From a virus, in IMG/VR virus record IMGVR_UViG_3300028583_001329: 64,000 nucleotides of DNA; one strand, 5' to 3'. This document shows, piece after piece, positions 269-60,868 of this stretch; the first letter of the stretch is position 1, and every line of letters begins with the position of its first letter. A model generated the notes under the pieces. The model saw only the letters and a list, made by a program, of their open reading frames with translations. It was not told the DNA's origin and made no database searches. Position numbers and translations under genes: made by a program.

Positions 269-320
269 CGCATAAAAGCCTAACCACCTAGCCGTGATGC
301 CGGGTGGTTAGCTTATGCCG
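269..320. terminator. bidirectional hairpin between convergent genes, flanked by GCATAA...TTATGCCG
   Basis: Stem CTAACCACC (280-288) / GGTGGTTAG (303-311). GCATAA at 270-275 and TTATGC at 313-318. Confidence 0.7.
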
Positions 321-324
321 TAGT

Positions 325-1464
325 TTATTTATTATACGCTTCGGTGGCTTTAATTGCACCTTTGGTTACGCGATCTAACTGATCAGCAAGACCTGTTATG
401 TAGCGAGATATCTTAACCGCTGGAACAGTTACTGCCGTGTTAACGCGTGCACCTAAGCGCATAAAGCTTTGTGCGTATGCTGAATCGTTAGACTTACTAT
501 CAAATTTACTAATTCGATTTTCTAACGTCTTGCTAACGCCGTTGTCTTTAGCACTATTAAGGTGGTTGTTAAGATTCGCATACGTAGCCTTACCAGCCAC
601 TGCTTCTAACGCCGCCATAGCCTCAGCCGCTGTTGTCATTAGAGAAAGATCTTTATATTCTTTCTCTTCTTTCTTAAAGAAGAAAACAGGTTGAGATTGT
701 CTGAAGTCAACTACTAAGCGAGCATTACCAGGCAGAATGTCTTTAGACTCGTAACCATCACCGTACTTACGCATGGGGATATACTTCATGATTACGTTTT
801 CTACAAGGTCATCAATAGCTTCTTCAACAGCAATGATTGACTTAGCGTCTTCTGCTTTAGTAAAGGCGGCAGCGATCTTTTCACCTTCTGCAGTCAGCGC
901 CTTAGATAGATCGATTAAAGCACGACTCACCTCGACTACATTATCCAGGTTAATTTCATCTTCAATGGCGAGTGCTTCAAGGTTAGCGTCGACGCTGACT
1001 TGGATGTCGGCCTTTTCAAGATCTTTGAATTGCTTCAATCGATTCTTTAAACGCTCCTGCATGTCTTCACCGCGCGAGGCGAGTTTCAAGACCCAGATGA
1101 CTACAGTTGCTACAGCCATTTCAATGGCTTTCTTAATCGCTTTGTAGATACGTTCAATAGTTTCAGTAACCTTGTTTTCAGTCGATACGTCTAATGCCTC
1201 TAAGCCAACTTGATTAGCGAGACCGGTTAACGCAGTCTTAGTTAGAGGCTCATCGTATTGGGCAGGGTCGGTACATGCCGCGTGGATGGCTTCTAAACCT
1301 TTAGCTACACCTAGTAGTGTGTCGGCGTCTTCAAGATGTTGTTCAAATTCCATATCGGTAATTTGCTCATTGATTTCTTCAACATCATAAGAGACAGTGG
1401 ATTCCTGACTTACTACAGGTGCCGGGGTGTTAATGGATAAAAGCGATGAGGTGCGCGTAGACAT
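325..1464 (-). CDS. phiKZ-type inner head (ejection) protein paralog with S/A/G-x-E cleavable propeptide
   Basis: Acidic N-terminal region with VSQE/GLE/VSTE sites, followed by the family helix NKVTETIERIYKAIKKAIEMAVATVVIW. The same pattern occurs in 1474-2520 and 62864-64000. Confidence 0.65.
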   Translation of the reverse strand: MSTRTSSLLSINTPAPVVSQESTVSYDVEEINEQITDMEFEQHLEDADTLLGVAKGLEAIHAACTDPAQYDEPLTKTALTGLANQVGLEALDVSTENKVTETIERIYKAIKKAIEMAVATVVIWVLKLASRGEDMQERLKNRLKQFKDLEKADIQVSVDANLEALAIEDEINLDNVVEVSRALIDLSKALTAEGEKIAAAFTKAEDAKSIIAVEEAIDDLVENVIMKYIPMRKYGDGYESKDILPGNARLVVDFRQSQPVFFFKKEEKEYKDLSLMTTAAEAMAALEAVAGKATYANLNNHLNSAKDNGVSKTLENRISKFDSKSNDSAYAQSFMRLGARVNTAVTVPAVKISRYITGLADQLDRVTKGAIKATEAYNK

Positions 1465-1473
1465 GTATTTCTC

Positions 1474-2520
1474 CTACTTCTTGTCTGGACTTTGGCGAGT
1501 TAGAATACCCAACAGTGACTCCAACTCTAAAATAGTTGTAGTAAAGTAGCCAATGATGGTTCTAGGTGGCTTCTGAAGCATAGCAGCAATGGGTGCAGCT
1601 ATCTTCAATAATTCGGTAGTGACGTCACGATTACCGGACATAATGTCAAAGTCAGTCTTCATTAACTTATCAACTTGACCAGCAAACTCTTGAACGTTCT
1701 CTGTCATCTTCAACACATTTTCTAAATCTAATAGATCAATGGCATCAGCGACCTCTTTTGCTTTAAACGTCATTTCTTTTACTTCAACACCTTCTGTCTG
1801 TAGAAAGGCAAAGTTAGGTACGGGGTGGGTGAGGTCCATGACGATGTGACGGTTACCAGGATAAACATCCTTAGAGGTATAGACATGTTTCTTACCTTCA
1901 AGCTTGTAATGCTTGAGTATGTAATCCATCAAGTCATCTGATAATTTAGTCAGTGCATTAACGTCACCCATCCGTTTCGCATTATTGAACTTGTAAATTA
2001 TCTTTTCGCTTGATGCTTTGATAGAAGGTAGCGGTGCTACTACGGCCTGTAGACGCTTAACAACTTTATCAAGATCAACGGTATCCCCAATTGCCAATGA
2101 TGTCAACTGAGTACCGTAAGGAATAGTGATGTCTATTTCTTCTTTATCCTTAAGCTCTTTGTTGGTTTTCTGAAGTCTGTCTTTTAGTCCACGCAAACGG
2201 TCTAAGACTACTTCAGTCCAACGTACAATGACTTCATAAGCACGTTTAAAGGTAGCTTTGATGGCTTTAATGATACGCTCAATGGTATCTGCCACTTTAT
2301 CTTCTAAAGACACACCGTATGCGGCTATACCTAAAGATTCTATCTGGTGCTCAATAGCTATTTTAGCTACAGGTGAATTCCAGTCATCATGCTCTTTACA
2401 CAGTGACGATATTTGTTCAAGTTGAATACCTATGTTAAACAACGACTGTAGATCGTTATCTAGTGATTCTAACGTGAGTGTTAAGAAAACCATTTCACGC
2501 GATACCTTAGTCTCTAACAT
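1474..2520 (-). CDS. phiKZ-type inner head protein paralog
   Basis: TLE/QLE/VSLE sites followed by DKVADTIERIIKAIKATFKRAYEVIVRW. Tandem paralog of 325-1464. Confidence 0.65.
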   Translation of the reverse strand: MLETKVSREMVFLTLTLESLDNDLQSLFNIGIQLEQISSLCKEHDDWNSPVAKIAIEHQIESLGIAAYGVSLEDKVADTIERIIKAIKATFKRAYEVIVRWTEVVLDRLRGLKDRLQKTNKELKDKEEIDITIPYGTQLTSLAIGDTVDLDKVVKRLQAVVAPLPSIKASSEKIIYKFNNAKRMGDVNALTKLSDDLMDYILKHYKLEGKKHVYTSKDVYPGNRHIVMDLTHPVPNFAFLQTEGVEVKEMTFKAKEVADAIDLLDLENVLKMTENVQEFAGQVDKLMKTDFDIMSGNRDVTTELLKIAAPIAAMLQKPPRTIIGYFTTTILELESLLGILTRQSPDKK

Positions 2521-2641
2521 GACTATTTCTTCCTTAGGTCTATGGTGCTTGAGATCATAGATTATTGAGTCTGGCGTGTCGTATTAGACACTTACCATCA
2601 ACCATTATGACTAACCTTTTTTTAACCAGTAAGTAACGAAT

Positions 2642-4786
2642 ATGATCAACTTCTTATCAGATTATAAAAAATATAAGAATTCTATAGTAGATTTAAATAC
2701 TACTAATGAGTCGTTTCTTAGACTTGCCACTGTATATAAAAAGATGGGAATCGAAAACAACGTCTTTCATCTAACGTTACTACAGCCTGAGCTACAGGGT
2801 GTCGATCCATTTTCAGAAGAGCTAAGCCAAGAGCAGAAAGTAATGATCACCATGGAGTGTAAGTATAACCCATGGTACTTTTTAAGAGAAGTGGTACGCA
2901 TACCGCCCCAATCAGGTAACACGCCCGTATCTTATATTGCCAATAGAGGTAACATTGCTTTAACGTGGTCATTTTTCAACCATATTGATTTCGGTCTCAT
3001 ACAGCCACGTCAGACAGGTAAGTCGGTCTCTACTGACTGTTTGATGACAAACCTAATATATCTATCCATGTTATCATCGCGTATCAACATGATAACTAAA
3101 GATGCTAACCTGCGCTCTGCTAACGTCGAACGTCTTAAACGTATCCGAGACCTATTGCCTCCTTATCTTATTGTTAAAGATAAGAGTGATGCTAATAACC
3201 AACATCTACTTACGTATAACACACTAGATAACACGTACAGTACGGCGGTTGCTCAGTCATCAGAAGCGGCTGCGATTAACGTAGGTCGTGGAACTACTGC
3301 ACCTATCACCCAGGTGGATGAGGGTCCGTTTATTCGTTTCATTGGTTCACTTATACCTGCAGCGCTAGCGGCCGGTACAGCAGCCCGTGAAGAAGCTAAA
3401 CGTAACAACCAGCCATATGGAAACATTTTTACAACTACCTCTGGTAAGAAAGATGACCGTGATGGTAAATACATGTACGACATGCTAACTGGCGGTGCGG
3501 TGTGGAATGAGGTCTTCTTAGATGCTGCAAACATAGAAGACTTCCACCGCTTAGTCAGAATGAACTGCACTAACCATAAAGTTATCATTAATGGCACTTT
3601 CTCACATCGTCAATTAGGTAAGAGCGACGACTGGCTATATCGCGCTATTGCTAACGCTAACGCCAAAGGTGAGGAAGCTGACCGTGATTTCTTTAACCGT
3701 TGGACTAGTGGTACGCAACGTTCACCGCTTACTACTAAACAGAATAACACCATCTTTGAGTCAGAACGTGAACCAGATCATACTGAAGTTACAGATGAAG
3801 GTTACATGATACGTTGGTACATACCTGAGTATCAAATAAACCAACGCATGGCGACAGGTAAATACGTAGCGGGTATGGATACTTCAGAGGGTGTGGGTCG
3901 AGATTCGATTACCATGGTAGTATTAGACGTTAGAGATTTATCTGTTGTTGCCGCAATGGATATTAACGAAGCTAATATTATCCGCTTCAGTAAATGGGTA
4001 AGTTCATTCCTTATCGCTTATGAAAATGTAACGTTGGTTATTGAGCGTAAATCAACCGGGGTTGTTATTATAGATGCATTGATGATTGAACTCCCATCAG
4101 TAGGTATTGATCCCTTCAAGCGTTTATATAACACCATCGTCCAACATCATCTGGAACGTAAGACAGATTACGATCGTATACTTAAAGATACACGCTATCG
4201 CGATGAATCGTTCTACATCAGTCATAAGACAGACTTTGGTTTCTCTACTAACGCAAAGAGCCGTGAGTTGCTATTTGGTAACGTATTGCAAAACGCAGCG
4301 ACCAATGCGGGTCACCTTGTAAAAGACACTACATTGTCAAGTCAATTACGTGGGCTAGTAGAGAAGAATGGTCGAATAGACCACGAAGCATCGGGCAATG
4401 ACGACTTGGTTATTGCTTGGCTATTATCGGTATGGTTTGTTACATTCGGTAATCACCTTGACTTCTACACTATCGATCCAGGTCAGTGTATGATATTAGT
4501 AGGTGAGCGTTCTGGCAATGGCGATTATGATCGTGCTATTGCTGAAAAGAACAACCGCACCCGTAGCCGTATTGACCAGGTGCTAGAAGAGATAACCCTT
4601 TGTCAATCAGGCTTTAAACTTGCCCGTCTGGAGGCGGAACTTAAACAACTTACCTATCAGACCAAATCTGATGGGGGTGAGATACTAAGCTTTGATGCGT
4701 TAATGAAACAAGCTAATGACCGCAAGAAAGCTAAGCGCTCGCAAACTAAGAACACCAGCAAATCTAGGGAACTACTATTCTGGTAG
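2642..4786 (+). CDS. terL: terminase large subunit (phiKZ gp25-like)
   Basis: Walker A QPRQTGKS, motif GRGTTAP..VDEGPF (Walker B), nuclease-domain GMDTSEGVGRD and DDLVIAWLL. 714 aa. Confidence 0.9.
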   Translation: MINFLSDYKKYKNSIVDLNTTNESFLRLATVYKKMGIENNVFHLTLLQPELQGVDPFSEELSQEQKVMITMECKYNPWYFLREVVRIPPQSGNTPVSYIANRGNIALTWSFFNHIDFGLIQPRQTGKSVSTDCLMTNLIYLSMLSSRINMITKDANLRSANVERLKRIRDLLPPYLIVKDKSDANNQHLLTYNTLDNTYSTAVAQSSEAAAINVGRGTTAPITQVDEGPFIRFIGSLIPAALAAGTAAREEAKRNNQPYGNIFTTTSGKKDDRDGKYMYDMLTGGAVWNEVFLDAANIEDFHRLVRMNCTNHKVIINGTFSHRQLGKSDDWLYRAIANANAKGEEADRDFFNRWTSGTQRSPLTTKQNNTIFESEREPDHTEVTDEGYMIRWYIPEYQINQRMATGKYVAGMDTSEGVGRDSITMVVLDVRDLSVVAAMDINEANIIRFSKWVSSFLIAYENVTLVIERKSTGVVIIDALMIELPSVGIDPFKRLYNTIVQHHLERKTDYDRILKDTRYRDESFYISHKTDFGFSTNAKSRELLFGNVLQNAATNAGHLVKDTTLSSQLRGLVEKNGRIDHEASGNDDLVIAWLLSVWFVTFGNHLDFYTIDPGQCMILVGERSGNGDYDRAIAEKNNRTRSRIDQVLEEITLCQSGFKLARLEAELKQLTYQTKSDGGEILSFDALMKQANDRKKAKRSQTKNTSKSRELLFW

Positions 4787-4836
4787 TCCCTACCATCATT
4801 TAAACCTTTACCAAGTTAAATAAAAAAAGGATAACC

Positions 4837-5874
4837 ATGAACTTACTTAACGAAGTACGTATTACCATTGACCGCAATCGAGAAGAGACTGTTGATATCT
4901 GTAAGAAAGAAGCTATCTACAAACCGCATTTACGCCTACTGGTATTAATGCGTCAAGAGCAGGGTATCATTGAAGATCCATCGATGAGTGATATTGACCA
5001 GTGTCTAGTGATGGATAAGATGTTCTTTGAACGTCATCTTAAAGATATCAAGATCAATTCAGATCGAATTCTAACGCATCTAGCAGAAGTCCACAAGTCC
5101 AAGTGGTACCTTCGTCTGCCTAGTTGGTTAGATATCCCTAGAATGCTTGTCGTGGCCGATAAGGAGTATAACGACCAGGTTCGTATGGACGTTCAAACTC
5201 CTTACTTTGAGTTAGAACAAATCCCAAGTCTATCTACCGTTATCTCACACGTTCAACCGTCTAACTACCATGTCGAAGATGTATTGACGCCGTTTGGTGA
5301 GGTAAAGACTACAGTTAAGATCACACCACCTCTTGATCTTAGCCAGATCTTGTCTATCTTCCATACAGTGTCGACGCTTAAATGTGAATATACAAAAGAG
5401 CCAATTGGAAACCAGGGTTTATCTCTATCTCAGGAAGAGCTTAACTTTATTCAAGATGGTACAATACCAGAAAACATTAGCGTATTACGTGAACTAGCTA
5501 CAATAGCTACATCGGCAACACCATATACAGCAAGTTTGTATTTCTTCTTACGTCGCTTTAAAGCACTAGACGATATAGACGCATATCAGCTTATTAGCTA
5601 TAAGAGTCAGTGTATGGATAAAGACGCTAAAGCGGCGATCATGGTGCGCGAGAAGAATAAGACATTCCTTACATCGCGTCAAATTAAGAATGCGCTTAAG
5701 AAGCTGTGTGCTCATTACACCTTTGCGGCAGACATTGATCAGAAAGCGCTATTTGCCCAGGATTACGAGATGTTCAATACACTTCGCTTCCACAACAAAC
5801 CATACGAGGCATTGTTAGAGTATCATCGTGAAACTGATTACCTAACTGAAGCCTTAAAGCGTCAAGCAGCATAA
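4837..5874 (+). CDS. hypothetical protein
   Basis: 345-aa ORF with an AAGGA SD. No recognised motif. Confidence 0.6.
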   Translation: MNLLNEVRITIDRNREETVDICKKEAIYKPHLRLLVLMRQEQGIIEDPSMSDIDQCLVMDKMFFERHLKDIKINSDRILTHLAEVHKSKWYLRLPSWLDIPRMLVVADKEYNDQVRMDVQTPYFELEQIPSLSTVISHVQPSNYHVEDVLTPFGEVKTTVKITPPLDLSQILSIFHTVSTLKCEYTKEPIGNQGLSLSQEELNFIQDGTIPENISVLRELATIATSATPYTASLYFFLRRFKALDDIDAYQLISYKSQCMDKDAKAAIMVREKNKTFLTSRQIKNALKKLCAHYTFAADIDQKALFAQDYEMFNTLRFHNKPYEALLEYHRETDYLTEALKRQAA

Positions 5875-5878
5875 CAAC

Positions 5879-5927
5879 GGCATAACCTACCTCTACCCGC
5901 GATAGGTAGAGGTAGGGTCTTTATGCC
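5879..5927. terminator. bidirectional hairpin with GGCATAA...TTATGCC flanks; 31-nt core identical to 60830-60860
   Basis: CCTACCTCTACC-CGCGATA-GGTAGAGGTAGG at 5886-5916, between convergent genes. Confidence 0.75.
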
Positions 5928-6425
5928 TTATTGGTCAAATATCTTTTTAAAGTACTCCACATAGACTGAGTCGTAGCGGGTACCGGTTATTTGATTTTCT
6001 AATCGTTCGTACGCGTTGTGTTGTTGGGGGGTTAACGTACGATAAGTTAATGCCTGGATAATATCTTTATCGCTTATAAGACGACGAAGGTATACAGACA
6101 CGAACTGTCTTCTTAACGGATCATGTAAAGGTAGTGTGTAGAGAACACCGATAAACTCCATCAACGTCTCATCGTCAAGTAGCTGGATTGTCTCATAGGG
6201 GATTTCAATTCCCCGGTGCAGCCACTCAACAAGTTTAACAAACGGGACCTGCTCCCCGTAGTAATGATGGATCTTATCCTGCAATGCATCTAAGCCTTCA
6301 AGGTAGGCCCTAGGTGGTTGTTTAAATGTTTTGTTTTTATACAACCTATATACATCACTAGCATAAACCGTTATAAGTACATGCAGACTAAACATGGTGA
6401 CGACCCCTGGTGGGCTGTTAAACAT
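5928..6425 (-). CDS. hypothetical protein
   Basis: 165-aa ORF directly downstream of 6429-7640 on the same strand. Confidence 0.55.
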   Translation of the reverse strand: MFNSPPGVVTMFSLHVLITVYASDVYRLYKNKTFKQPPRAYLEGLDALQDKIHHYYGEQVPFVKLVEWLHRGIEIPYETIQLLDDETLMEFIGVLYTLPLHDPLRRQFVSVYLRRLISDKDIIQALTYRTLTPQQHNAYERLENQITGTRYDSVYVEYFKKIFDQ

Positions 6426-6428
6426 ATA

Positions 6429-7640
6429 CTAGTCGTAATGCTTCATGGTCAGAGATCTAAGAACAAGATAAAGCAGGATACCTGTTCTAACACTTGCCTT
6501 TACAGACGCGTTACGTGAATCAACCGCATCTTCAGCAATCTCACCAGCCAATTCACGGATCTCCATGAGGTCATCTTGCACACTACGTGAAGACATGTAA
6601 ATGGCTCGCATCTTAACTAACACTAGTGGTAGATTGGTAATATCCACCTTATTCTGTTGTAGATAGTGGAACGCGTGAATGATGGTTTTATCCAACAACG
6701 GCGTAATGACCTTATCTTTACTATCTGAAACATTGTCACTCATATAACGCAAGCTATTAACCAATTGCTCAGGCGGCATCGTATGGATAGCTTTAGCAAT
6801 GATGTCTACTAGCTCTTGTTTAATGAACGTCTCATCGTCACTTATTATGCGGTGTAGGTATTGTCTAAAACGCGTATAGTCATTGCGCTTGTCTTTTACA
6901 ATACTCTCGCCATCAATATCTACAGAAGAAGAGACCGTAGTGATCTTAGCATCTTGCTCTCTAACTTTATGGAATACCTCAACAACCGCCTTAAATACCT
7001 CACGTATACGTGACTGTATATCGTTAACCATATACACCACAGCATCGTCAGGTGCAAACGTACGGTAAGTATTATAGTGGATGCCTGTCTTAGCCAAGAT
7101 GCTCTCAGAACGGTCTTTAACCAACGCACCCCACGAACCATGAACCTTTAATGAGAATTTCTTAGACAAACTTGCATATGTCATCATCGCTACACTCTTA
7201 TCGGCGGGGTAGCGGAAATAGTGACTCATTAAAGAACTCAGGAACTTATAATGAAGCATGCTTAGTAGCGCAATTTGAACTTGTTCTTTCTCTTTACTAC
7301 TTACATCACTTTCTTCAAAACGATGCAGGCACCAGATAATAGACAGGTTAACTAAGTCGCTACTCACCTTAAAGCTAGTATCGATAGAGTCCAATGAATA
7401 AACATCTGCTTTAAGTGCTACTTCATCAATCTGTAATACTTCATCAAACCACGTAATTTTGTCATCGTTGGTATAACGAATAGGGTAGACGCCAATCAGC
7501 GCATCCCCAAAGAAATTAATCGAATCGTCTGTCTTAGTTACAAACCCATTGACATAGCCGATGATACGTCTAACTAGACCGCGATTAAAGACGACGTCTT
7601 GACCGATGTCATTAAAGACGGTTTTAAGTGTACCTGCCAT
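6429..7640 (-). CDS. conserved chimallivirus virion structural protein (phiKZ gp32-like by position)
   Basis: 403 aa, AAGGA SD, located between terminase and phuZ as in phiKZ-like genomes. Assignment rests on synteny and recalled similarity, not a search. Confidence 0.5.
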   Translation of the reverse strand: MAGTLKTVFNDIGQDVVFNRGLVRRIIGYVNGFVTKTDDSINFFGDALIGVYPIRYTNDDKITWFDEVLQIDEVALKADVYSLDSIDTSFKVSSDLVNLSIIWCLHRFEESDVSSKEKEQVQIALLSMLHYKFLSSLMSHYFRYPADKSVAMMTYASLSKKFSLKVHGSWGALVKDRSESILAKTGIHYNTYRTFAPDDAVVYMVNDIQSRIREVFKAVVEVFHKVREQDAKITTVSSSVDIDGESIVKDKRNDYTRFRQYLHRIISDDETFIKQELVDIIAKAIHTMPPEQLVNSLRYMSDNVSDSKDKVITPLLDKTIIHAFHYLQQNKVDITNLPLVLVKMRAIYMSSRSVQDDLMEIRELAGEIAEDAVDSRNASVKASVRTGILLYLVLRSLTMKHYD

Positions 7641-7762
7641 ACGGGTATCCTTTAATTATTTAATAGAAATATACGGAGTAATCATAAAAATACACCTTCA
7701 ACGTATATCTATAGGGTAGTTAACGCTATCTAGTGTTGAGGAAATTTGATACAGGAAGAAAT

Positions 7763-8089
7763 ATGTCAGACCCAGTAGAACGTATACATAAAGCGCTAAA
7801 AATAGTTGAAAAGCAAACGGCAATCGTACCGCAAGAAGATATTACGTTTGCAATACTTCGTAACGTGGATAGTAAGTTTCACGACCACGTGTTGGAATCA
7901 CAATTAGGACTCGGTTCGGGTGTGGGTTATAGAAACCAAGAAAGACTCGAACAAGCCGGTTGGATTTTTGAAGATTTTAAGATCATCACTACAAAAGGTA
8001 AAGTCAATATACCTTACTTAGTGGGTAAAAAACGTAAACAAATCAAGAAGTTATTAGCTTCTGTTGATGACGATCCAAAAATAGTTTAG
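7763..8089 (+). CDS. hypothetical protein
   Basis: ATG at 7763 has an AGGAAG SD and is preferred over the track start at 7733. Confidence 0.55.
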   Translation: MSDPVERIHKALKIVEKQTAIVPQEDITFAILRNVDSKFHDHVLESQLGLGSGVGYRNQERLEQAGWIFEDFKIITTKGKVNIPYLVGKKRKQIKKLLASVDDDPKIV

Positions 8090-8161
8090 CGGTCAATTTA
8101 GACAAATACTATACCCCGGGGTTTTAAAAACCCCCTGTAGTTTTTGGTGTGGAGAGGACGC

Positions 8162-8698
8162 ATGACAACGATAGTCTGGGATGGACAGCAGTTGGCTAGT
8201 GATAGCCAGTTGACTGTGAATTGGAATGTAATATCACAAGAACCTTTTATCAAGCTACAACTCTTAAAAGGGATCTTTATTAATCCGGAGACTAAGGAAG
8301 AAGATAACTTAGTAGGTATGGGCTTTTCAGGTGACGCTGCCCAAATCTATCCATTTAGAGACTGGCTATTAGCTGGTTGTAAGCGAGAAGAATACGCAGA
8401 AGAATTTAAAGAATGCTGCGTCATTCTAGTATGCCGTAATTCAGTATGGCAATTTCACTACAGTCCCGACCCGCTACCGGTCAGGAACACTGTAGCAGTT
8501 GGATCAGGTTGCGATTTTGCAACATCTGCATTATCATTAGGTAAGACAGCGCCAGAGGCTGTAAGACACGCTATTAAGCATGATGTTTATAGTAGTGGAC
8601 CAGTGGTATGCTTAAGTATTGACGAAGCGGGAAAACCTTTCCTCCATCATTACAACGATGATGTTTCGTTAGAAGCCACCGCCTCTTTGGCGTGGTAG
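8162..8698 (+). CDS. proteasome-beta/HslV-like Ntn-hydrolase (threonine peptidase fold)
   Basis: ATG 8162 follows SD GGAGAGGA and gives MTTIVWDG..ASDSQ (Thr1). Also present: K near position 30, GFSGD, AVGSG, and C-terminal DVYSSGPV, all matching proteasome beta-type motifs. Confidence 0.75.
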   Translation: MTTIVWDGQQLASDSQLTVNWNVISQEPFIKLQLLKGIFINPETKEEDNLVGMGFSGDAAQIYPFRDWLLAGCKREEYAEEFKECCVILVCRNSVWQFHYSPDPLPVRNTVAVGSGCDFATSALSLGKTAPEAVRHAIKHDVYSSGPVVCLSIDEAGKPFLHHYNDDVSLEATASLAW

Positions 8699-8742
8699 AT
8701 CCAATCTTTTTTTAAATTAAAATTATAAAACGGTAGCCGATT

Positions 8743-9345
8743 ATGCAACTTAATACGTTAATCAGTCAGGAAGTCAGAGTATGTCATACCCCAGAATCAG
8801 TAGATGTGTTTCAGGGGGAGGGGTTGAGTGTAAAACACCTTATGCATTTAAACAAAACGGATAGTTACGTAGACCAAGCAATTATGGTCTTAGTTTACAT
8901 GCAGGGTAGTATTGTGCCAATGTACGTCACAATGTTTAACCATCCAACACACAACGTTTTTGAAGAGAAATACCAATTCAATAACTTAGTTGAACATATT
9001 AATCAAGGTTATAAACAAAGTCATGACCTGCTTGTTATGTTAACGACCACGGAGCCTTTAAAGGTTATTACGCAGGGAAGCCAGCTTAAAGTTAAGTCTG
9101 GTGATGTGGATGTTGCTATCTTCACTAACAACCCGGTGGATGATCAGGATCCAGTAAATATACCTAATGTCAAGGGTGCATTTTATCTTGCTAACTTGTT
9201 CTTTGACAAATGTGGTTTAGATGATCATATCAGACAACAGTTTCTAACTACATTGTTAGAGATGTTATCGTTTGATAGAACTGGACGTCTAGATCGCCAT
9301 GCTAATAGCGTTAGACCTCTGTCGGGTACTATTAGATTACACTGA
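8743..9345 (+). CDS. hypothetical protein
   Basis: 200-aa ORF ending before a hairpin-TTATGCCG. Confidence 0.55.
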   Translation: MQLNTLISQEVRVCHTPESVDVFQGEGLSVKHLMHLNKTDSYVDQAIMVLVYMQGSIVPMYVTMFNHPTHNVFEEKYQFNNLVEHINQGYKQSHDLLVMLTTTEPLKVITQGSQLKVKSGDVDVAIFTNNPVDDQDPVNIPNVKGAFYLANLFFDKCGLDDHIRQQFLTTLLEMLSFDRTGRLDRHANSVRPLSGTIRLH

Positions 9346-9354
9346 TGTAATTTA

Positions 9355-9422
9355 GACCACGTGGCATCTAGCACGTGGTCTTATGCCGTCACGGCATAGA
9401 GTAGGCCCGAAGACCTACCCTA
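9355..9422. terminator. two back-to-back hairpins, each followed by TATGCCG on its own strand
   Basis: Plus strand: GACCACGTG/CACGTGGTC (9355-9380) then TTATGCCG. Minus strand: GTAGG/CCTAC hairpin (9401-9418) followed by CTATGCCG (CGGCATAG at 9392-9399). Confidence 0.7.
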
Positions 9423-9426
9423 GAAA

Positions 9427-10212
9427 TTAAACACCTGAAGATGTTAGTTTGATATGGCGATGATAGGTTTCGTGGTCATCCATCATCAGTATCTTTTTCA
9501 TCTTCGTATCGCGATATTCGGTATACAGTTCTTCCGCATCAGCATAACCTTCTACAATATCACGGTAAATGCCCAATGACATTCCACCATGTAGCCTGGC
9601 AGTATCAATACTAATAATAGACTGATTGTAGATGTAGCTCTTTACTGCAAACTCTACTAGTTTAGTAAACGCGGGAATGGTACGTGGGTTGAGGTTTTGC
9701 ATGTCAGGGTCGTTACTTACCACACAGCGTAAGACCGCGTTATTACTTAGAACACTCTCGGCTTCAACATGAATAGTGTTCTCATCAATCAATGTTACAG
9801 ATGATGTGCTATTTGTTTCATAGCCGTTGGCGGCGTCAATGATGTTAAGCGATTCTCTAATCATAGACGAACTAGTAGTATACGTGCTAGTTGCTTCGTT
9901 CTCATTAAACCCAAGACTCATCACAGAGATAATGCTACGGCCTTGTGTGGCCGTTTTAGGAATAACGTAGACCTGGTGGCTTCCGTCATCGTAAGTCTTC
10001 TTAGCAGAGCGTAGAGAGAGCTCTATCTGTATACCACCTACTAAATTACAATCTACAAGAACACGAGGTTTAACTACCTTAGCGATGATCTGAGATTCAA
10101 CGGATACCGGATAGTTGATAGTATTAAAACGTTTGTCTATAAAGACCTGACGTAGTATTTCCGCTGGGATTTTAAATGTGCAGTCCTGTACGGCTTTTTG
10201 AATGGGGCTCAT
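9427..10212 (-). CDS. conserved chimallivirus protein, probably virion structural
   Basis: 261 aa, divergent from phuZ, a position typical of the family. No catalytic motif. Confidence 0.45.
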   Translation of the reverse strand: MSPIQKAVQDCTFKIPAEILRQVFIDKRFNTINYPVSVESQIIAKVVKPRVLVDCNLVGGIQIELSLRSAKKTYDDGSHQVYVIPKTATQGRSIISVMSLGFNENEATSTYTTSSSMIRESLNIIDAANGYETNSTSSVTLIDENTIHVEAESVLSNNAVLRCVVSNDPDMQNLNPRTIPAFTKLVEFAVKSYIYNQSIISIDTARLHGGMSLGIYRDIVEGYADAEELYTEYRDTKMKKILMMDDHETYHRHIKLTSSGV

Positions 10213-10395
10213 GGTTATATCCCGTTAGCTGTAGATGACATATGAGTTAATTAATACATTTTCCGTTTATTTATGAAGACCTAGTACTGTGGTAAGCATT
10301 AAACTAACAAATGTATATCTCATAGTCGAGGGGGTTATTAAATTTGTATTCACTTCATACTTTATCGAACAATCTAGGAATAAGAGGCGATTTTA

Positions 10396-11361
10396 ATGAG
10401 TAAACACACCTTAAGAATCTACGCGGCAGGCGGCTGCGCGACTAACTTAGCGAAGCCCTTTGTTGGTTTAGAATCGTCTGACATCTACGCCGATATCGAT
10501 CCTGTTTTTGTAGACACTAGCATGTCTAACATCGAAGGACCTATCACTGAAGAAATGTGCTACATCCTACCTGACGTAGATGGCTCAGGTAAGGTACGTC
10601 GTGAAAACCACCAACGTATCTCTGATTCAATCAAAGACATCGTGTCAATTCACCCTCCAGGTGACTTTAACATTGTTATGTTCTCAGCCGCAGGTGGTTC
10701 AGGTTCAGTAGCTGGACCATTGATTGCTCGTCATCTTCTTGAAATTGAAGCACCATTGATCTGTATTGTAGTGGGTTCTACAGACTCTGCTATCACGTGT
10801 ACTAACACACTTAATACACTGAAATCATTAGATAGCATCTCACAAGCTGCAGAGCTACCTATCACATTGTTCTACGAGGAGAACGGTGCTGGTGTTAAAC
10901 GTTCAGAAATTGACAAGCGCGTCAAAGGTGCTATCGGTTCTATCAGTGCTTTGGTATCTGGCAACAACCGTGAACTTGATACTAAAGACATTTCAACATG
11001 GGTGTACTACAACCGTGCGTCTAAAGTTGAACCACAGTTAAGTCAGCTATCTATTCTTCGTGACAACACAGCGGTAGAAGGTCTTAATGAACCTATCTCT
11101 ATTGCTTCATTGTTAGCAGACCCTGACACGGAGATGCCTGAAGCTGCGCCCGATTATCAATGTATCGGTTATCACCGTGATCAGTCTGGTGAGGTCCCTG
11201 ACATGCACCTTGTGATTTCTGTGAACGGCATTGAGCGTATCTACGAAGGTATTGCTAAGGCGCATGGTACTTACGAGAAGTCTACGTCTAAGCGTTCTCT
11301 AGACAGAAAGACTTTCGTTGGTGGTGGCGATCAAGTAACTAAAGATGGCATGGTACTGTAA
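10396..11361 (+). CDS. phuZ: PhuZ phage tubulin (spindle)
   Basis: N-terminal IYAAGGCATN, VDTS, tubulin signature SAAGGSGS, and C-terminal polymerisation tail ending DGMVL. Confidence 0.93.
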   Translation: MSKHTLRIYAAGGCATNLAKPFVGLESSDIYADIDPVFVDTSMSNIEGPITEEMCYILPDVDGSGKVRRENHQRISDSIKDIVSIHPPGDFNIVMFSAAGGSGSVAGPLIARHLLEIEAPLICIVVGSTDSAITCTNTLNTLKSLDSISQAAELPITLFYEENGAGVKRSEIDKRVKGAIGSISALVSGNNRELDTKDISTWVYYNRASKVEPQLSQLSILRDNTAVEGLNEPISIASLLADPDTEMPEAAPDYQCIGYHRDQSGEVPDMHLVISVNGIERIYEGIAKAHGTYEKSTSKRSLDRKTFVGGGDQVTKDGMVL

Positions 11362-11375
11362 GTACCCATCCAGAA

Positions 11376-11412
11376 CGCATACCGCCTCCCTGATGGGGAG
11401 GCGTCTATGCCG
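11376..11412 (+). terminator. hairpin + CTATGCCG after phuZ
   Basis: CGCCTCCC-TGAT-GGGGAGGCG then TCTATGCCG. Confidence 0.7.
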
Positions 11413-11428
11413 CTTGTCAGTATTTTTC

Positions 11429-11442
11429 AGACCTACATTACT
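11429..11442 (+). promoter_or_regulatory. putative early (virion-RNAP) promoter AGACCTACATTACT
   Basis: Variant of the repeated AGACCTATATTAC motif, which contains the phiKZ early consensus TATATTAC. Confidence 0.6.
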
Positions 11443-11481
11443 AGAGCAGTATAAGTAATATTACAGTGTGGAGATCGTACA

Positions 11482-11829
11482 ATGACAGTGCCTAACTACT
11501 TCCTGTTCGATATAACAACAGCCCGTGAAATCGCAAAGCCCTTCATTATAGATTTACAAAAACATCTAAGCGGTAGACCAGAAGTCGATATTGACAAAGT
11601 ATTAAATCAGTGGTTTGCCGAACGCCTAGTAACAATGGGCGTATTACATCATGACAACCCAATTGAAACTGACATGCCCCTAGGCGTAATCCTTTTCCTT
11701 AATAGCCTACCTGACGTTATTAAAGGTTCAGTTGATCAACAGCTCTTTCGTGCCGTAAGTAATCACTGGCATCCGGACACATCAGTTAAAACGTATATTA
11801 AAGACCAGACGTTGGTCATTAATGCCTAA
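11482..11829 (+). CDS. small protein, tandem array member 1
   Basis: GGAGA SD. N-terminal strand YFLFDI and C-terminal hairpin TYIKDQTLVINA. Confidence 0.65.
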   Translation: MTVPNYFLFDITTAREIAKPFIIDLQKHLSGRPEVDIDKVLNQWFAERLVTMGVLHHDNPIETDMPLGVILFLNSLPDVIKGSVDQQLFRAVSNHWHPDTSVKTYIKDQTLVINA

Positions 11830-11844
11830 AAGGACCTACCCCCT

Positions 11845-12447
11845 ATGGCGATAAGTATAATACTCCCTTTACATGAATTTATAGATAACGTAGTACTACG
11901 TTCATCGCTGTTCTTCTATAACGTTGATCGCCCTAACCCGGTCAAACGTAACCACGCTAAAGCTATTGTTCATCAACTGGTTGACGATGCGTTAAGTCAT
12001 TCATTTGCATGGGCACCAAGTGTCGATAAGACATCGGGTCTGTTGGAGGAATTCTACCCGTGGATGACAACACATCCGGTATTTGGATCACGCTTCTATC
12101 AGCAATGTATAGACCCGGTTGACGCTAGGCTAACTGAGATCTTAGGTACTTATGTAACGTACAACACACCTGACGTATGGAGCGTGAGAAAAGATGGCGA
12201 TAGTATCGTCCTAGAAAACCTAGGTTCTCACATGAACAACGCTGCTCAAGGTTTTGCTGATAAGTTACAAAGCCTACTTCAAGAAGAATACGCAACGCGT
12301 TTAGGTTCATTACCAATACATCGCAATAATGCAACTACGGGTGATGATCTTAAACATCAAGTAGACTCTACGTACGGTGACCTGACAAACACCGTATTGC
12401 GTTTAATGGTTGACAAAGATCTTAATTTGACAGGACAGCCCCAGTGA
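11845..12447 (+). CDS. small protein, tandem array member 2
   Basis: AAGGA SD. ISIILPL at the N-terminus and WSVRKDGDSIVLEN hairpin, plus a C-terminal extension. Confidence 0.65.
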   Translation: MAISIILPLHEFIDNVVLRSSLFFYNVDRPNPVKRNHAKAIVHQLVDDALSHSFAWAPSVDKTSGLLEEFYPWMTTHPVFGSRFYQQCIDPVDARLTEILGTYVTYNTPDVWSVRKDGDSIVLENLGSHMNNAAQGFADKLQSLLQEEYATRLGSLPIHRNNATTGDDLKHQVDSTYGDLTNTVLRLMVDKDLNLTGQPQ

Positions 12448-12908
12448 GCCAGATCTCTATCATAGTTAGTTTTGATGATGTACATTCGCTGTGTTTTAAA
12501 TACTTAGAACCTATTATAGGTGGTGCGTATTTACAGTGTATGGACTATACATTGGTATTGGATTATGAAGTAGAAGTGTTTTTGCTTGGTGAAAACAACC
12601 GCTATATGGTTGGTGAAGATGTGACCGAGTCGTGGCTAGAAGAACTATGTCCAATGCCTGATATCCGCAGTGCGTTAAAGAAAGATATACGACGCTCTGT
12701 ACAAGGCATCATTACCCGTATCTTAGGCGGTGATAAAATTAGCAACCACCATTACGAGTATCAGCGTCTAGGTGACCAGTTTGAATATCTCATTGTAGAT
12801 AAGGGTGATGTCAGAGATGCCGAGCTCGAAATGCTACGACGTTCAAATGACGAGCTTAAACAGAGAATACAGAATATGGAGGAAGGTTGGTGGGTCCAAG
12901 ATACCTAA
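12444..12908 (+). CDS. small protein, tandem array member 3
   Basis: GTG start overlapping the upstream stop (GTGA). ISIIVSFDD ... EYQRLGDQFEYLIVD. Confidence 0.6.
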   Translation: MSQISIIVSFDDVHSLCFKYLEPIIGGAYLQCMDYTLVLDYEVEVFLLGENNRYMVGEDVTESWLEELCPMPDIRSALKKDIRRSVQGIITRILGGDKISNHHYEYQRLGDQFEYLIVDKGDVRDAELEMLRRSNDELKQRIQNMEEGWWVQDT

Positions 12909-13270
12909 TATTAGATATCTCGCATGCGCGTGCTACTGAGAATCATTTAAACGGTTCCCTTGCAACTTACAATCTTAAGTTCACAGATTTATTAACAATG
13001 ACAGTTGAGGCATTGACTAACCTTGAAGATTATTACACCAACGATGAAAAGGTCACCGATTACGGATTGATGTATCGGTGCCTTAATCAATACAACGACA
13101 GACATCGTAAGGAGTACACCTTTGAGGATATTCATGACATCTGCACGATAGCGCTTAGAATATACAAGACCATTTACCCGGCCATTGGTACATTCTTTCA
13201 GCGATATACGTTCAGTAGACTTATTGTCTCTCAGTGTCTTGGAGATGACCTATATGTTGAGTGCTGTTGA
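12887..13270 (+). CDS. small protein, tandem array member 4
   Basis: GGAGG SD at 12878 (start probably GTG 12890). YLILDIS ... VSQCLGDDLYVEC. Confidence 0.6.
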   Translation: MVGPRYLILDISHARATENHLNGSLATYNLKFTDLLTMTVEALTNLEDYYTNDEKVTDYGLMYRCLNQYNDRHRKEYTFEDIHDICTIALRIYKTIYPAIGTFFQRYTFSRLIVSQCLGDDLYVECC

Positions 13271-13664
13271 ACCAGAAGATAAATTCTTCATCATTGACGT
13301 TAGGCAATATATGTTAAAGCTTGATCAGCAAGATGTCCAAGCACTTAACAACATCAAGATGAATTATCATGATGTATTGCTTTTAGCAGCGACTAGTGCA
13401 TTAACTAGTCAGTTTGATAAAGTCAAGGTCAAGGATCACGTAGAAGGTGAGCTCTACACATTACTTGATGAATATGATGAGCTGGGTGTGTCGGCCGATA
13501 ACTACCATACGTTTATGCATGTTATCAATATCACGCTACAAGTAGCATGGCCAATAACCCAGTCTGTAGATAATCTACAACGTAACATTCCCAACATCGA
13601 GTTTGTAGATGTTAATATAGTGGGTGATACTACTGTTGTTTACACATACCACATGGTGGGATAA
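13254..13664 (+). CDS. small protein, tandem array member 5
   Basis: ATG 13254 with GGAGA SD at 13241. FFIIDVR ... VDVNIVGDTTVVYT. Confidence 0.6.
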   Translation: MLSAVEPEDKFFIIDVRQYMLKLDQQDVQALNNIKMNYHDVLLLAATSALTSQFDKVKVKDHVEGELYTLLDEYDELGVSADNYHTFMHVINITLQVAWPITQSVDNLQRNIPNIEFVDVNIVGDTTVVYTYHMVG

Positions 13665-13675
13665 GAGAATATACA

Positions 13676-14393: not shown

Positions 14394-14396
14394 GTT

Positions 14397-14783: not shown

Positions 14784-14804
14784 TAACAAAAAGGAGCACG
14801 TGCA

Positions 14805-46642: not shown

Positions 46643-46660
46643 ACCTATAAGGAGTTTTTT

Positions 46661-47485
46661 ATGTTGTATCATCTTGTTAATGGTGAGCAGGTTTCAGATC
46701 CTGAACCGTTCCCAGGTGAAGACATCTGTGTAATGATGATAGACAGTGACGTTTGCAAAATAGAAACCGTACCCTTTAATTCATTATTTACCATTGATAA
46801 CTATAACGGCCTCTATACGGTTATAAAAGTAAATGAGGTAGCCGCTATCTCCCAGGTAGAAGGTATTGCTATACCTGATAAAATTTACGATGTGATGCAG
46901 TTAGATGATCTAGTTACTGTACTTTACATGTCGGGTAATGAAGTAAGGTATAGAAAACTAATTATAAGTGACTCTTATTCCGAATGTATGTTGCTTAAAG
47001 ACGGGTTGGTGGCGCTAAACAACCAACCGTTTCCTACTTTAGAAACAGTAGATAGCGTTAGAGTATATAAGCGATTAAATCATGATGGCTTTACGTCACA
47101 AAGCTTTAAGTTATCTACTAAAGAACGAATCAGCGATAACCACCCATTGCGTCCACGTGGGATAAATTCAATCACGACCTATCAGGATGGTTATATAGTA
47201 GATGTTGAGTTTACTAATGGAATCAAGGCTTATAGAAGAGAATTGATTGTTTACCCTAACCATAAAACTAATAAAGTACATGCAAGTATGGAGGAGATGG
47301 TGTCGTGGCAGTCTGACTACATATATAAATCTAATTTAGCTTCTGTTAAGGCGCACGGTATGGCGGTGTTATTCACCTATGCAGATATAGATGCGAAAGG
47401 AAATATTAATACTAATTCATTTAGACTAGAATATGTCATAGAAGGTCAGGTATTTGTAAAAGAGTTTAATACAACAACGTCTTGA
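46661..47485 (+). CDS. hypothetical beta-rich protein
   Basis: ATG 46661 with AAGGAG SD. Confidence 0.55.
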   Translation: MLYHLVNGEQVSDPEPFPGEDICVMMIDSDVCKIETVPFNSLFTIDNYNGLYTVIKVNEVAAISQVEGIAIPDKIYDVMQLDDLVTVLYMSGNEVRYRKLIISDSYSECMLLKDGLVALNNQPFPTLETVDSVRVYKRLNHDGFTSQSFKLSTKERISDNHPLRPRGINSITTYQDGYIVDVEFTNGIKAYRRELIVYPNHKTNKVHASMEEMVSWQSDYIYKSNLASVKAHGMAVLFTYADIDAKGNINTNSFRLEYVIEGQVFVKEFNTTTS

Positions 47486-47533
47486 CGGCATAGAGGAAGA
47501 GCTAGCGCTACGCTAGCTCTTCCTCGTTATGCG
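47486..47533. terminator. bidirectional 15-bp hairpin with GGCATAG...TTATGC
   Basis: GAGGAAGAGCTAGCG-CTA-CGCTAGCTCTTCCTC between convergent genes. Confidence 0.8.
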
Positions 47534-47543
47534 CTTTCTTTTT

Positions 47544-54701: not shown

Positions 54702-55118
54702 ATGATGACGTTACCTGTCTTAGATAGTATTGGGGCCCAGATAGCGTTAACAGAGGCTTACGATCACACTTACGGTATCTTCAACTATGATGGCATCGAT
54801 TATAATCCTTTAAGTATTGTAGCCATGCATCCGGTAGAGGATACCCTTAAAGTGGGGTTGAAACCTTTCATGATTAAACGTTTTAGGATGTATGACATTC
54901 ACAAACGTTATGGCTTGTCGTTAACGGAGCTTCTTGCCTTACCTCGTGATACGGTTACTGATATATTTGATGATGCTGCTAAAGCCATTGCTGAAGAAGA
55001 AGAGCAGATGCAGGAGATTCAAAATGAAATGCGTGAAGCTATTAACGAGCAGAAGGCAGCTAAGCGTAAAACCATGCGAGCTCAGAAACAAAAGAAAGTA
55101 AAGAAGGCTGGGAAGTAA
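54702..55118 (+). CDS. T4 gp51 / tail chaperone C-segment-like protein; frame open from 54573
   Basis: KRYGLSLTELLALPRD..IFDDA..IAEEEE resembles the TAC-C/gp51 signature. No SD before ATG 54702. Confidence 0.5.
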   Translation: MMTLPVLDSIGAQIALTEAYDHTYGIFNYDGIDYNPLSIVAMHPVEDTLKVGLKPFMIKRFRMYDIHKRYGLSLTELLALPRDTVTDIFDDAAKAIAEEEEQMQEIQNEMREAINEQKAAKRKTMRAQKQKKVKKAGK

Positions 55119-55135
55119 TTCCTGGCCTTATGCCG
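55104..55135 (+). terminator. hairpin (stop codon in loop) + ATGCCG
   Basis: AAGGCTGGGAA-GTAA-TTCCTGGCCTT-ATGCCG. Confidence 0.65.
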
Positions 55136-55196
55136 TTTCGTCTATAATTACGTCGTGGTGTAACTATATAGAGGTAAAAGGTGAGATAATAAAACA

Positions 55197-57239: not shown

Positions 57240-57971
57240 ATGCGTTATTTGACCATTATACTTGTTATCCTTCTATGGGGGTGTGGGGAATCTATCCCAC
57301 CCCCTGATACAGATAAGACCGAACCTTTACCTGTGGAGATAGTTGAAGAGGTAGAGGTTGTTGAAGTCGAAGAGCCTGTTGAAGAACCCGATCCTATTGC
57401 GGAAGAAAAGGATGAGATTAAAGAGAACACGTACCAAGTAGTAGATGCCAGCAAGTTAAAAGGCTTGCAATCTATTAAATACGATCTTTTCTTTAAATCA
57501 GCCATGAGTTGGCATATGCCTCAGATAGACTGGCGTTGGCTCAAAGCTCAATGTTGGCAGGAAAGTCGTTTTAATCCTAAAGCGGTTAGTCCGGTCGGGG
57601 CTGGCGGTGTGTGTCAGTTCATGCCAGGGACATTTGACGGGGTTCCCGAATCTGTTAAACAGGGTAGGGATGTGTGGGATGCACGTACTAACATCGAAGC
57701 TGGTGCGTGGTATATGAATACCCGCTATAACTTCTGGACGTCACCCCGCCCTCAGTTAGACAGGATATGGTTAGCCCAGGCGTGTTATAATGCTGGTTGT
57801 GGTCATGTACTTAATGCACAAAAAGCATGTGGCAATCCAAGCGGTTACAATGACATTATCAAGTGCTTACCGCAAATAACCGGTAAGCACTCTAAAGAGA
57901 CTATTAGTTATGTAATATTAATTGATGGTTTTAGAAAGGAATTAGGGGTGCCTGACCCTATCAGTTATTAG
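57240..57971 (+). CDS. SLT-family lytic transglycosylase with lipoprotein-type signal peptide
   Basis: MRYLTIILVILLWGC, then an acidic Pro-rich linker, then AQCWQESRFNPKAVSPVGAGGVCQFMP and ACYNAG (SLT motifs I-III, catalytic Glu). Confidence 0.85.
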   Translation: MRYLTIILVILLWGCGESIPPPDTDKTEPLPVEIVEEVEVVEVEEPVEEPDPIAEEKDEIKENTYQVVDASKLKGLQSIKYDLFFKSAMSWHMPQIDWRWLKAQCWQESRFNPKAVSPVGAGGVCQFMPGTFDGVPESVKQGRDVWDARTNIEAGAWYMNTRYNFWTSPRPQLDRIWLAQACYNAGCGHVLNAQKACGNPSGYNDIIKCLPQITGKHSKETISYVILIDGFRKELGVPDPISY

Positions 57972-57996
57972 GAGGCTTCGGCCTCCTTTTATGCCG
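57970..57996 (+). terminator. UUCG hairpin + TTTATGCCG
   Basis: AGGAGGC-TTCG-GCCTCCT-TTTATGCCG. Confidence 0.75.
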
Positions 57997-58058
57997 TCAG
58001 AGAAAACATTATCTCTTAATTACATAGACAGTGATAAGTGATTACAAAGTAGAATAAC

Positions 58059-59469: not shown

Positions 59470-59508
59470 CCACGGCCAGTCCCTCCAGGCTGGTCGTGGT
59501 TTTATGCC
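59470..59508 (+). terminator. hairpin + TTTATGCCG
   Basis: CCACGGCCAGTC / GGCTGGTCGTGG then TTTATGCCG. Confidence 0.7.
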
Positions 59509-59532
59509 GTCTAGATGATAGTAAAAGTTTAT

Positions 59533-59983: not shown

Positions 59984-59998
59984 ATCGAAGGACTGTTA

Positions 59999-60487
59999 AT
60001 GGATAACCACATAGTTGACATTACGGGAAAAAACCATAACCCCGATGAGGTAAGTAACGTCGGTAGAAAGAAAGAGCTGGCAATGGACCTAGGATCACTT
60101 CACGATAACCTAGCCAGTCCGGTTCCGTTCTTTATCCATTGCGTCTATGAAAGATCCATCGATAAGAAAACTACCAAGCCCTTTAAGCTTTCAGCTTTAG
60201 ACTGTCTGGATATAGCAGCTTTAATGAAAGACAAAACCGATCTCACTGATAAAGAGTTGTTATCATTTGTAAAAGGTGTAATAGGGCTTTATAATTCTGA
60301 CTTTACGTCCCTGATGCTAACAATAGGCTATGGGTGGGTTGAAGGTAGAGAACTCGTTATTGATACCTTCAATAGCTATTATGAGATAACAGGTGCTGAT
60401 CTTATACCTAATACCGGAGAAACCCTGGTTTTTGGTAGTTGGGATATACCTGATGATGCTATTACGGTAATCATCCCACTAGACTAA
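59999..60487 (+). CDS. hypothetical early protein
   Basis: AAGGA SD, 162 aa. Confidence 0.55.
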   Translation: MDNHIVDITGKNHNPDEVSNVGRKKELAMDLGSLHDNLASPVPFFIHCVYERSIDKKTTKPFKLSALDCLDIAALMKDKTDLTDKELLSFVKGVIGLYNSDFTSLMLTIGYGWVEGRELVIDTFNSYYEITGADLIPNTGETLVFGSWDIPDDAITVIIPLD

Positions 60488-60531
60488 TAACCTTTTTGTA
60501 ACCATGTGTATATATTTGAGGAATCTATAAT

Positions 60532-60813
60532 ATGCCATCAGCAAAAGAAGTAGTAGAACGCGCTAAGCGTTGGAGAAATGCCACTGTCGTCTTTGATGAC
60601 GATAATTTTAGCGTGGTAGAAGGTGAGTATCGTCACGATGACGGTAACTGGTCTAAGACAATGGGCGTACGGTGGAACGGCGAGGCCGATGGTCCTGGAT
60701 ATCCAAAGTTATTTGGAAACGGTGTATTCATGGTTGTCCCCGATTGGATGGCACCTGCCATTAAAGAAGCTTGTGTTGAATACATCTTCACTAGTGTAAA
60801 AGATACAAATTAA
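60532..60813 (+). CDS. hypothetical protein
   Basis: GAGGA SD. Contains GVRWNG..GPGYP..FMVVP. Confidence 0.55.
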   Translation: MPSAKEVVERAKRWRNATVVFDDDNFSVVEGEYRHDDGNWSKTMGVRWNGEADGPGYPKLFGNGVFMVVPDWMAPAIKEACVEYIFTSVKDTN

Positions 60814-60819
60814 AGTAAC

Positions 60820-60868
60820 GCATAAAAACCCTACCTCTACCCGCGATAGGTAGAGGTAGGCTATGCCC
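60820..60868. terminator. bidirectional hairpin, 31-nt core identical to 5886-5916
   Basis: GCATAAAAAC-CCTACCTCTACCCGCGATAGGTAGAGGTAGG-CTATGCCC. Confidence 0.75.

Follow-up and report, generated by a model that had tools for sequence, protein, structure and literature searches.

The stretch analysed here comprises 64,000 nucleotides (nt) of the virus record IMGVR_UViG_3300028583_001329 and is referred to below as the window. It corresponds to bases 38537-102536 of a single 190,650-bp contig and carries, between many of its genes, a recurring element in which an inverted repeat able to form a hairpin is followed at once by a short tail of fixed sequence built around TATGCC. Large open reading frames (ORFs) of the window match terminase, DNA polymerases and helicases in searches against PHROG. 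The same searches located the gene of the nuclear shell protein (chimallin) at 19691-21559 (E 1.5e-102) and three RNA polymerase (RNAP) beta-type subunit families, with split subunits, at 22272-23840, 39885-41945 and 41932-43908. The matches to the shell protein and the RNAP subunits therefore identify the phage as nucleus-forming and phiKZ-like (Chimalliviridae). It is a deep-branching, uncultured chimallivirus and very distant from phiKZ. A megablast search with 10 kb of the window found no match among GenBank phages, and chimallin is at most 30% identical to that of any deposited GenBank phage, the best being Xanthomonas phage LucasX. Close relatives were found only as uncultured contigs in IMG/VR, with RNAP subunit identities of 79-100%. 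The chimallivirus genome is just 190.6 kb long, under the usual 200-kb 'jumbo' line. Genome-wide counts given below refer to the whole contig, for which gene calling was crude (196 ORFs, with 6.5% of the DNA left intergenic).

A preliminary description of the window had listed 17 (T/C)TATGC(C/G) sites and two CTATG-only variants behind intergenic stem-loops and had proposed them as a candidate phage-specific code for transcript ends. All of these sites are present within 1-2 nt, each just after an inverted repeat, although some details required correction: the site at 18365 reads GTATGCCG, the one at 59501 is offset by 1-2 nt and the hairpin at 29373 is weak (-3.5 kcal/mol). For the genome-wide analysis a strong hairpin was defined as one of -13 kcal/mol or better that ends 0-4 nt before TATGC. 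Such a hairpin precedes 46 of the TATGC occurrences in the genome (15.3%) and 41 of the 94 TATGCC occurrences (43.6%), compared with 0.3-3.9%, or about 1%, for 13 control pentamers, TTTTT among them. A de novo word test gave the same picture. When 15-nt stretches around the 3' ends of the genome's 170 perfect-stem hairpins were searched, TATGCC was the top hexamer, with 30 copies observed against 0.42 expected, and TTATGC, ATGCCG and TGCCGT ranked next. The association of hairpin and tail is thus strongly enriched over control. By our gene calls TATGCCG is intergenic in 34 of 45 cases and TATGCC in 45 of 94, and almost every one of these intergenic copies lies directly 3' of a stem of 9-14 bp.

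Alignment of the 46 sites on TATGC yields the tail consensus YTATGCCGT, in which the last three positions are C in 41, G in 36 and T in 39 sites; conservation ends after the final T. The motif (T/C)TATGC(C/G) of the preliminary description holds, and the conserved tail is longer than it had stated. Its remark that many sites have no U-tract is borne out, as a run of at least four T follows the tail in 8 of the 46 sites and is missing from the other 38. A canonical terminator scan of positions 1-20000 of the window picks up only 2 of the roughly 11 hairpin-tail sites there. The stems are mostly diverse, and a few are of the CCTCC/GGAGG type. They had been described as unrelated, which is true of most of them and fails for eight convergent-junction sites that fall into two four-copy families of cassettes, treated below. 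We also considered whether the ATG of the tail might serve as the start codon of a mini-ORF. Open frames that begin at these ATGs have a median length of 14 codons, compared with 16 over all ATGs, and this reading was rejected.

The sites follow strict rules of position and orientation. They are found at 16 of the 19 convergent junctions and at none of the 18 divergent ones. Among tandem junctions, 19 of 135 in '+ +' and 2 of 23 in '- -' arrangement carry a site, and in 22 of 23 tandem cases the tail is in the sense of the upstream gene. The sole exception is the antisense copy at 11374-11381, which confirms the earlier observation that the tandem site at 11376 has the motif on both strands. 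Many convergent sites are framed by GCATAA at the left and its reverse complement TTATGC at the right, such that a hairpin with its tail can be read on each strand. The GCATA copies that had been noted on the left of convergent junctions are generally present; position 9355 is the start of a hairpin instead, and the minus-strand copy of that junction lies at 9391-9399. Rules of this kind characterize a signal for stopping transcription and not one for starting it.

The TATGCC(G)T tail is retained at orthologous sites in the IMG/VR relatives, whereas the stems have drifted or been exchanged for others and the 3' flanks have diverged. At the site on the minus strand at 39383-39415 the stem AGTAGAGGG/CCCTCTACT is changed to GGTAGAGGGG/CCCCTCTACC and to GATAGAGGG/CCCTCTATC in relatives. 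Two pairs are altered on both sides and 100% of the alignment cells are still paired; TATGCCGT does not vary, unlike the diverging 3' flank. The site at 34948-34980 shows the same pattern of compensatory stem change with a kept tail. Where this genome has the CTATGACC variant, at 46638, the relatives have a full TATGCCC.

More distant members of the family were compared by the perfect-stem word test, since an energy-threshold scan was uninformative in the GC-rich genomes of LucasX and RP12 (background 9-11%). The top words after strong hairpins are TTATGT in phiKZ, TTATGCTGT in LucasX and TTATGCCGT in Erwinia phage RAY, the last as in the phage studied here. The TTATG signal after hairpins is weaker in Ralstonia phage RP12. 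In the chimallin-encoding Bacillus phage vB_BspM_AgentSmith (79772-121382) the test found no TTATG tail after hairpins and T-runs instead. Among the phages compared, the motif is therefore found in phiKZ, LucasX and RAY, more weakly in RP12 and not in AgentSmith, and the TATG tail may be confined to the branch that infects Gram-negative hosts.

The signal is not a new code, because published reports already describe it in phiKZ and 201phi2-1. Putzeys et al. (2024, Microlife, PMC10914365) mapped 133 termination sites of phiKZ by ONT-cappable-seq and described, in 61 mapped terminators, a motif of a stem-loop followed by YTTATKYYGT. Most of these motif sites are called intrinsic terminators by ARNold, and read depth falls across them (PMC10914365). 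The letters of YTATGCCGT all lie inside this degenerate consensus. In both phages the hairpin is followed immediately by (T)TATG-Y-Y-G-T, and the sites are intergenic, stand after genes and are two-sided between convergent genes; both phages belong to the same family and have two multisubunit RNAPs of their own. The phage studied here is very distant from phiKZ, as its chimallin shows, and its genome has only 190 kb. Its tail is stricter and GC-richer, mostly TATGCCGT, whereas phiKZ reads TTATGTYGT, often with T-runs, and its diverse stems do not meet the C-rich/G-rich stem consensus of phiKZ (CCYCCCC...GGGRRGG). We take the latter as a trait of the phiKZ lineage and not as a defining one, judging from the sequences of RAY and LucasX, which also share the tail.

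When the phiKZ transcription termination sites (preprint 10.1101/2023.10.13.562163, Table S4) are placed on the phiKZ sequence, they fall inside the tail, on the T to Y of TTATGYY. The 3' ends are at the last T of TTAT, at the G or 1-3 nt beyond, and some are 1-4 nt into the tail. For 201phi2-1, Poppeliers et al. (2024, Microb Biotechnol, PMC11512511) describe a motif A (n=59) that 'strongly resembles' that of phiKZ. They also report co-occurring motifs (A/B) that elongate the stems and 15 bidirectional terminators; eight terminators were active in uninfected host cells, where they stopped expression of a downstream reporter. Elongated stems of this kind fit the GCATAA...TTATGC framing at convergent junctions here. 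Our comparison with motif A follows the authors' description and not the motif letters, and the sites described here are known from sequence alone.

Taken together, the location after gene ends, the sense of the upstream gene, the two-sided form at convergent junctions, the absence from divergent junctions and the match to the phiKZ motif support the terminator or 3'-end reading of the preliminary description. The anatomy and enrichment of the sites, the rules of orientation, the conservation among relatives and the identity with the motif published for phiKZ are direct observations, and by analogy with phiKZ we consider it very probable that the hairpin-tail sites are the main transcription terminators of this phage, of the phiKZ-like type of Chimalliviridae. 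Several points weigh against this. Termination in the source phage is a conclusion drawn from signal homology. In phiKZ the 3' ends were mapped to within about 2 nt and were maybe trimmed, and polymerase release is not distinguishable in them from later processing. The host polymerase also served the 201phi2-1 terminators in vivo, and a phage-polymerase-specific reading of the tail is unproven. Finally, four tandem sites are located 18-32 nt before the next start codon and leave little room for a promoter; read-through or restart must serve those genes.

In the model we favour, a nascent-RNA hairpin with a stem of 9-14 bp would form and be followed by the 9-nt tail YUAUGCCGU in place of the bacterial U-tract, and both the virion and the non-virion multisubunit polymerases of the phage would end transcription within or just after this tail. 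At convergent gene pairs one palindromic cassette with a tail for each strand would stop both directions. The GC-containing nascent-RNA hairpin just after a gene is shared with canonical intrinsic terminators, and the tail occupies the 7-9 nt in which release normally occurs, with a weakly pairing proximal UAU. It differs from them in that 38 of 46 sites have no U-tract, the distal GCCG would give a strong hybrid and the tail is of fixed sequence. The weak UAU stretch, pairing much like a short U-tract, could make it possible for the hairpin to strip the hybrid. Weakness of the hybrid does not account for the conserved G and GCCGU; G/GCCGU might act as a pause or fork element that compensates for the missing U-tract. 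A search of the collected literature found no work on the termination mechanism of the virion or the non-virion RNAP.

A few terminators are of a T-tract type: 39388-39430 (+) in the window, and 18269-18320 and 158248-158300 in genome coordinates. They retain GCC(GT) right after the T-run (CTTTTTTTGCCGTC, CTTCTTTTTTTTGCC), and GCCGT therefore appears to be an element in its own right, independent of TAT. We suggest that GCCGT is read as DNA and not as released RNA, because its position coincides with the mapped 3' ends of phiKZ or is downstream of them and because it is kept where a T-run replaces UAU (39388-39430 +, CTTTTTTTGCCGTC). Goslar-like phages, in which TTATTTGCCG has been noted, are counted toward the same suggestion.

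The tail also overlaps a known start signal. The core of the phiKZ late promoter is TATG, with G as +1 (Yakunina et al., 2015, PMC4666361; structure PMC12809450). The tail has the same four letters on the non-template strand, and the phiKZ 3' ends cluster at the T/G where late transcripts start. Unlike the late promoter, the tail is placed and oriented as a stop signal would be, continues with CCGT and needs a hairpin. Candidate starts of another form were found in the present genome: cTATGA or TATGA with no hairpin recurs 30-70 nt before start codons, for example at 1474 (upstream of a minus-strand gene), 2642 and 30065 of the window, and CTATGA occurs 11 times in upstream segments against 2.1 expected. 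We regard these hairpin-less cTATGA copies as candidate promoters of the non-virion RNAP, distinct from the TATGCCGT tails. Since the candidate promoters read cTATGA and have no hairpin, the start and stop contexts differ after the G.

It is conceivable, though on balance doubtful, that the tail is read on the non-template DNA by the beta-lobe pocket that recognizes TATG of the late promoter, in which case one device would serve both starts (TATGA, no hairpin) and stops (hairpin plus TATGCCGT). The promoter reader would travel with the elongating enzyme, because the pocket is in the core subunit GP123 and the sigma-like subunit is permanently built in. Once TATG was captured, and with the help of the GC-rich GCCGT located at the fork downstream, the polymerase would pause, its active site placed at the U/G step. 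It is at this step that the phiKZ 3' ends cluster and late transcripts start; the hairpin would then release the RNA with no need of a U-tract. A precedent for such reading of the tail comes from bacterial RNAP, which favours a pyrimidine(-1)/G(+1) step for pausing and whose core recognition element reads non-template bases near the active site. Inside genes, TATG occurs at 0.80 of the frequency in synonymous-codon shuffles in the sense and 0.72 in the antisense direction (ranks 16 and 14 of the 256 tetramers); among pentamers TATGA ranks ninth in depletion, and TCATA, its complement, is depleted as well. Avoidance specific to the sense strand would be predicted if TATG by itself paused the polymerase; the depletion shows no strand asymmetry and lends this idea no support, and avoidance of the promoter core fits at least as well.

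The possibility that transcription stops at the tail and restarts in place, with the tail TATG acting as the core of a non-virion RNAP promoter (G = +1), had been raised in the preliminary description as a terminator fused to a late start. The four tandem sites 18-32 nt before a start codon speak for such a fusion, and for these it may apply. As the general case it is not supported, and we consider it very unlikely. A start signal is not expected to be missing from all 18 divergent junctions, and in 16 of the 19 convergent junctions TATG faces into the end of the converging gene. A distinct promoter-like motif stands downstream of many tandem sites, and hairpin-less candidate promoters read cTATGA and not TATGCCGT. 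The preprint supplement for phiKZ lists no transcription start site (TSS) at the six tails that were checked, just termination-site and transcription-unit rows; the next phiKZ TSS is about 50 nt downstream of the tail (e.g. T011 at 23552, P012 at 23599).

A role of the element in RNA 3'-end processing or stabilization, in which the polymerase reads through, an endonuclease or RNA-binding protein of host or phage origin reads UAUGCCGU and the hairpin shields the new 3' end from exonucleases, is somewhat more plausible, yet we still think it unlikely. The tail is sequence-specific, unlike a U-tract; the phiKZ 3' ends are near the stem, some of them 1-4 nt into the tail, as trimming would give; and GCCGT, being mostly downstream of these ends, would be readable on a longer precursor. 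Against this stand the intrinsic-terminator calls by ARNold and the drop in read depth at the phiKZ motif sites (PMC10914365) and, for the 201phi2-1 terminators, the reporter arrest in uninfected cells (PMC11512511). A nuclease of such specificity is moreover not known. ChmC, the sole chimallivirus RNA-binding protein with enhanced cross-linking and immunoprecipitation (eCLIP) data, was considered as a reader of the tail and rejected, as the published eCLIP gave no motif and showed binding near start codons. Least probable of all, and in our view hardly credible, is an element acting at the level of DNA, be it a mobile palindromic repeat or a site of nicking, recombination or packaging. Two near-identical cassettes of ~45 bp, present in four copies each, in either orientation and with no flanking homology, would suit a mobile repeat, but most stems are unrelated and have compensatory substitutions. 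The one-sided tail in the sense of the upstream gene at 22 of 23 tandem cases and the avoidance of divergent junctions tie the element to transcripts, and in phiKZ RNA 3' ends map at the motif.

With termination as the favoured reading, these results extend the phiKZ terminator signature, a kind of signal that was already known, to a very distant, uncultured 190-kb chimallivirus. They indicate that it is the tail TATGCCGT, and not the stem, that is conserved across the family, in phages of Pseudomonas, Erwinia and Xanthomonas and in the source lineage. The signal could be used for operon annotation in uncultured jumbo phages and for terminator design in expression systems based on phage polymerases. 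It also raises the questions of how termination is achieved by a signal with no U-tract, why a stop signal repeats the promoter core TATG and what role GCCGT plays.

The two-sided cassettes form two near-identical families of ~45 bp, CCTACCTCTACC... and CCTAACCACCTAGCCGTGA..., each with copies at four convergent junctions; the copies stand in either orientation, their loops differ and their flanks share no homology. Copies are located at 267-321, 5877-5929 and 60817-60869 of the window and, in genome coordinates, at 3874-3913, 105815-105866, 133689-133730, 177575-177618 and 181720-181762. The families were either copied between sites or converged on an optimal design. In the window, the copy at 267-321 belongs to family B and reads CGCATAAA, hairpin, TTATGCCGT on the plus strand and TTATGCGGT on the minus strand. 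The other two are of family A: 5877-5929 has TTATGCCGT on the minus and TTATGCCTT on the plus strand, and 60817-60869 has CTATGCCCT followed by a T-run on the plus and TTATGCGTT on the minus strand. Two-sided putative terminators also occupy the convergent junctions at 18323-18373 (+ GTATGCCGT, - TTATGCTGT) and 47485-47535 (- CTATGCCGT, + TTATGCGCT and then a T-run), the latter with the strongest stem (-28 kcal/mol). At 39383-39430, also a convergent junction, the minus strand has a hairpin with TTATGCCGT, and on the plus strand the same hairpin is followed by CTTTTTTTGCCGTC, the T-tract variant that retains GCCGT. At 9354-9421 two separate hairpins point inward to back-to-back tails, TTATGCCGT on the plus strand at 9381-9389 and CTATGCCGT on the minus strand at 9391-9399, as had been described.

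Of the remaining predicted terminators of the window, that at the tandem (+ +) junction 11374-11413 has tails on both strands (+ CTATGCCGC, - GTATGCGTT) and is the only tandem site with an antisense copy; the others are on the plus strand. At 15670-15714 a 14-bp hairpin is followed by TTTTATGCCGT and then a T-run. The hairpin with TTTTTATGCCCG at 21581-21620 is downstream of the chimallin gene, and the one at 23824-23861, with the variant tail CTATGAGGT, follows the RNAP beta-like gene 22272-23840. A hairpin with CTATGCCGG and then a T-run is found at 25850-25882, with the promoter-like GACCTATATTAC about 35 nt downstream. Hairpins with TTATGCCGT are located at 29255-29290 and 55104-55136. At 29953-29987 the tail is CTATGCCGT, and the orthologous sites in relatives have other stems and the same tail. 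The site at 34948-34980, whose compensatory changes were described above, has the tail TTATGCCCA and the promoter-like ACACCTACATTA downstream, and that at 46612-46646 has the variant tail CTATGACCT where the relatives have the full TATGCCC. The hairpins at 57970-57997 and 59470-59510 are both followed by TTTATGCCGT; about 30 nt downstream of the second lies another promoter-like GACCTATATTAC.

The promoter-like motif a(G/C)ACCTAyATTAC (GACCTAyATTAC) has 14 intergenic copies in the genome, all on the plus strand; those in the window are at 11432, 22219, 25916, 35006, 39829 and 59536. Most are 25-110 nt before a start codon, with three at 14, 73 or more nt off that range or with no nearby gene, and they often stand 20-40 nt after a terminator tail. 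The motif resembles the TATATTAC element that follows phiKZ terminators; in the published flanks this early-promoter element (GATCTATATTAC, ATATATATTAC) stands some tens of nt beyond the tail. The phage studied here thus resembles phiKZ also in having an element of the TATATTAC type a few tens of nt downstream of the terminator, and by this analogy the motif is probably the early promoter, used by the virion RNAP. A further word, the palindromic TAATTA(A), is enriched ahead of genes, with 27 copies in upstream segments where 3.4 are expected, and inside genes AATTA is depleted. The word may stem from stop codons that overlap where genes end (TAATTAA) or from an element resembling the phiKZ middle promoter AAanTTAC.

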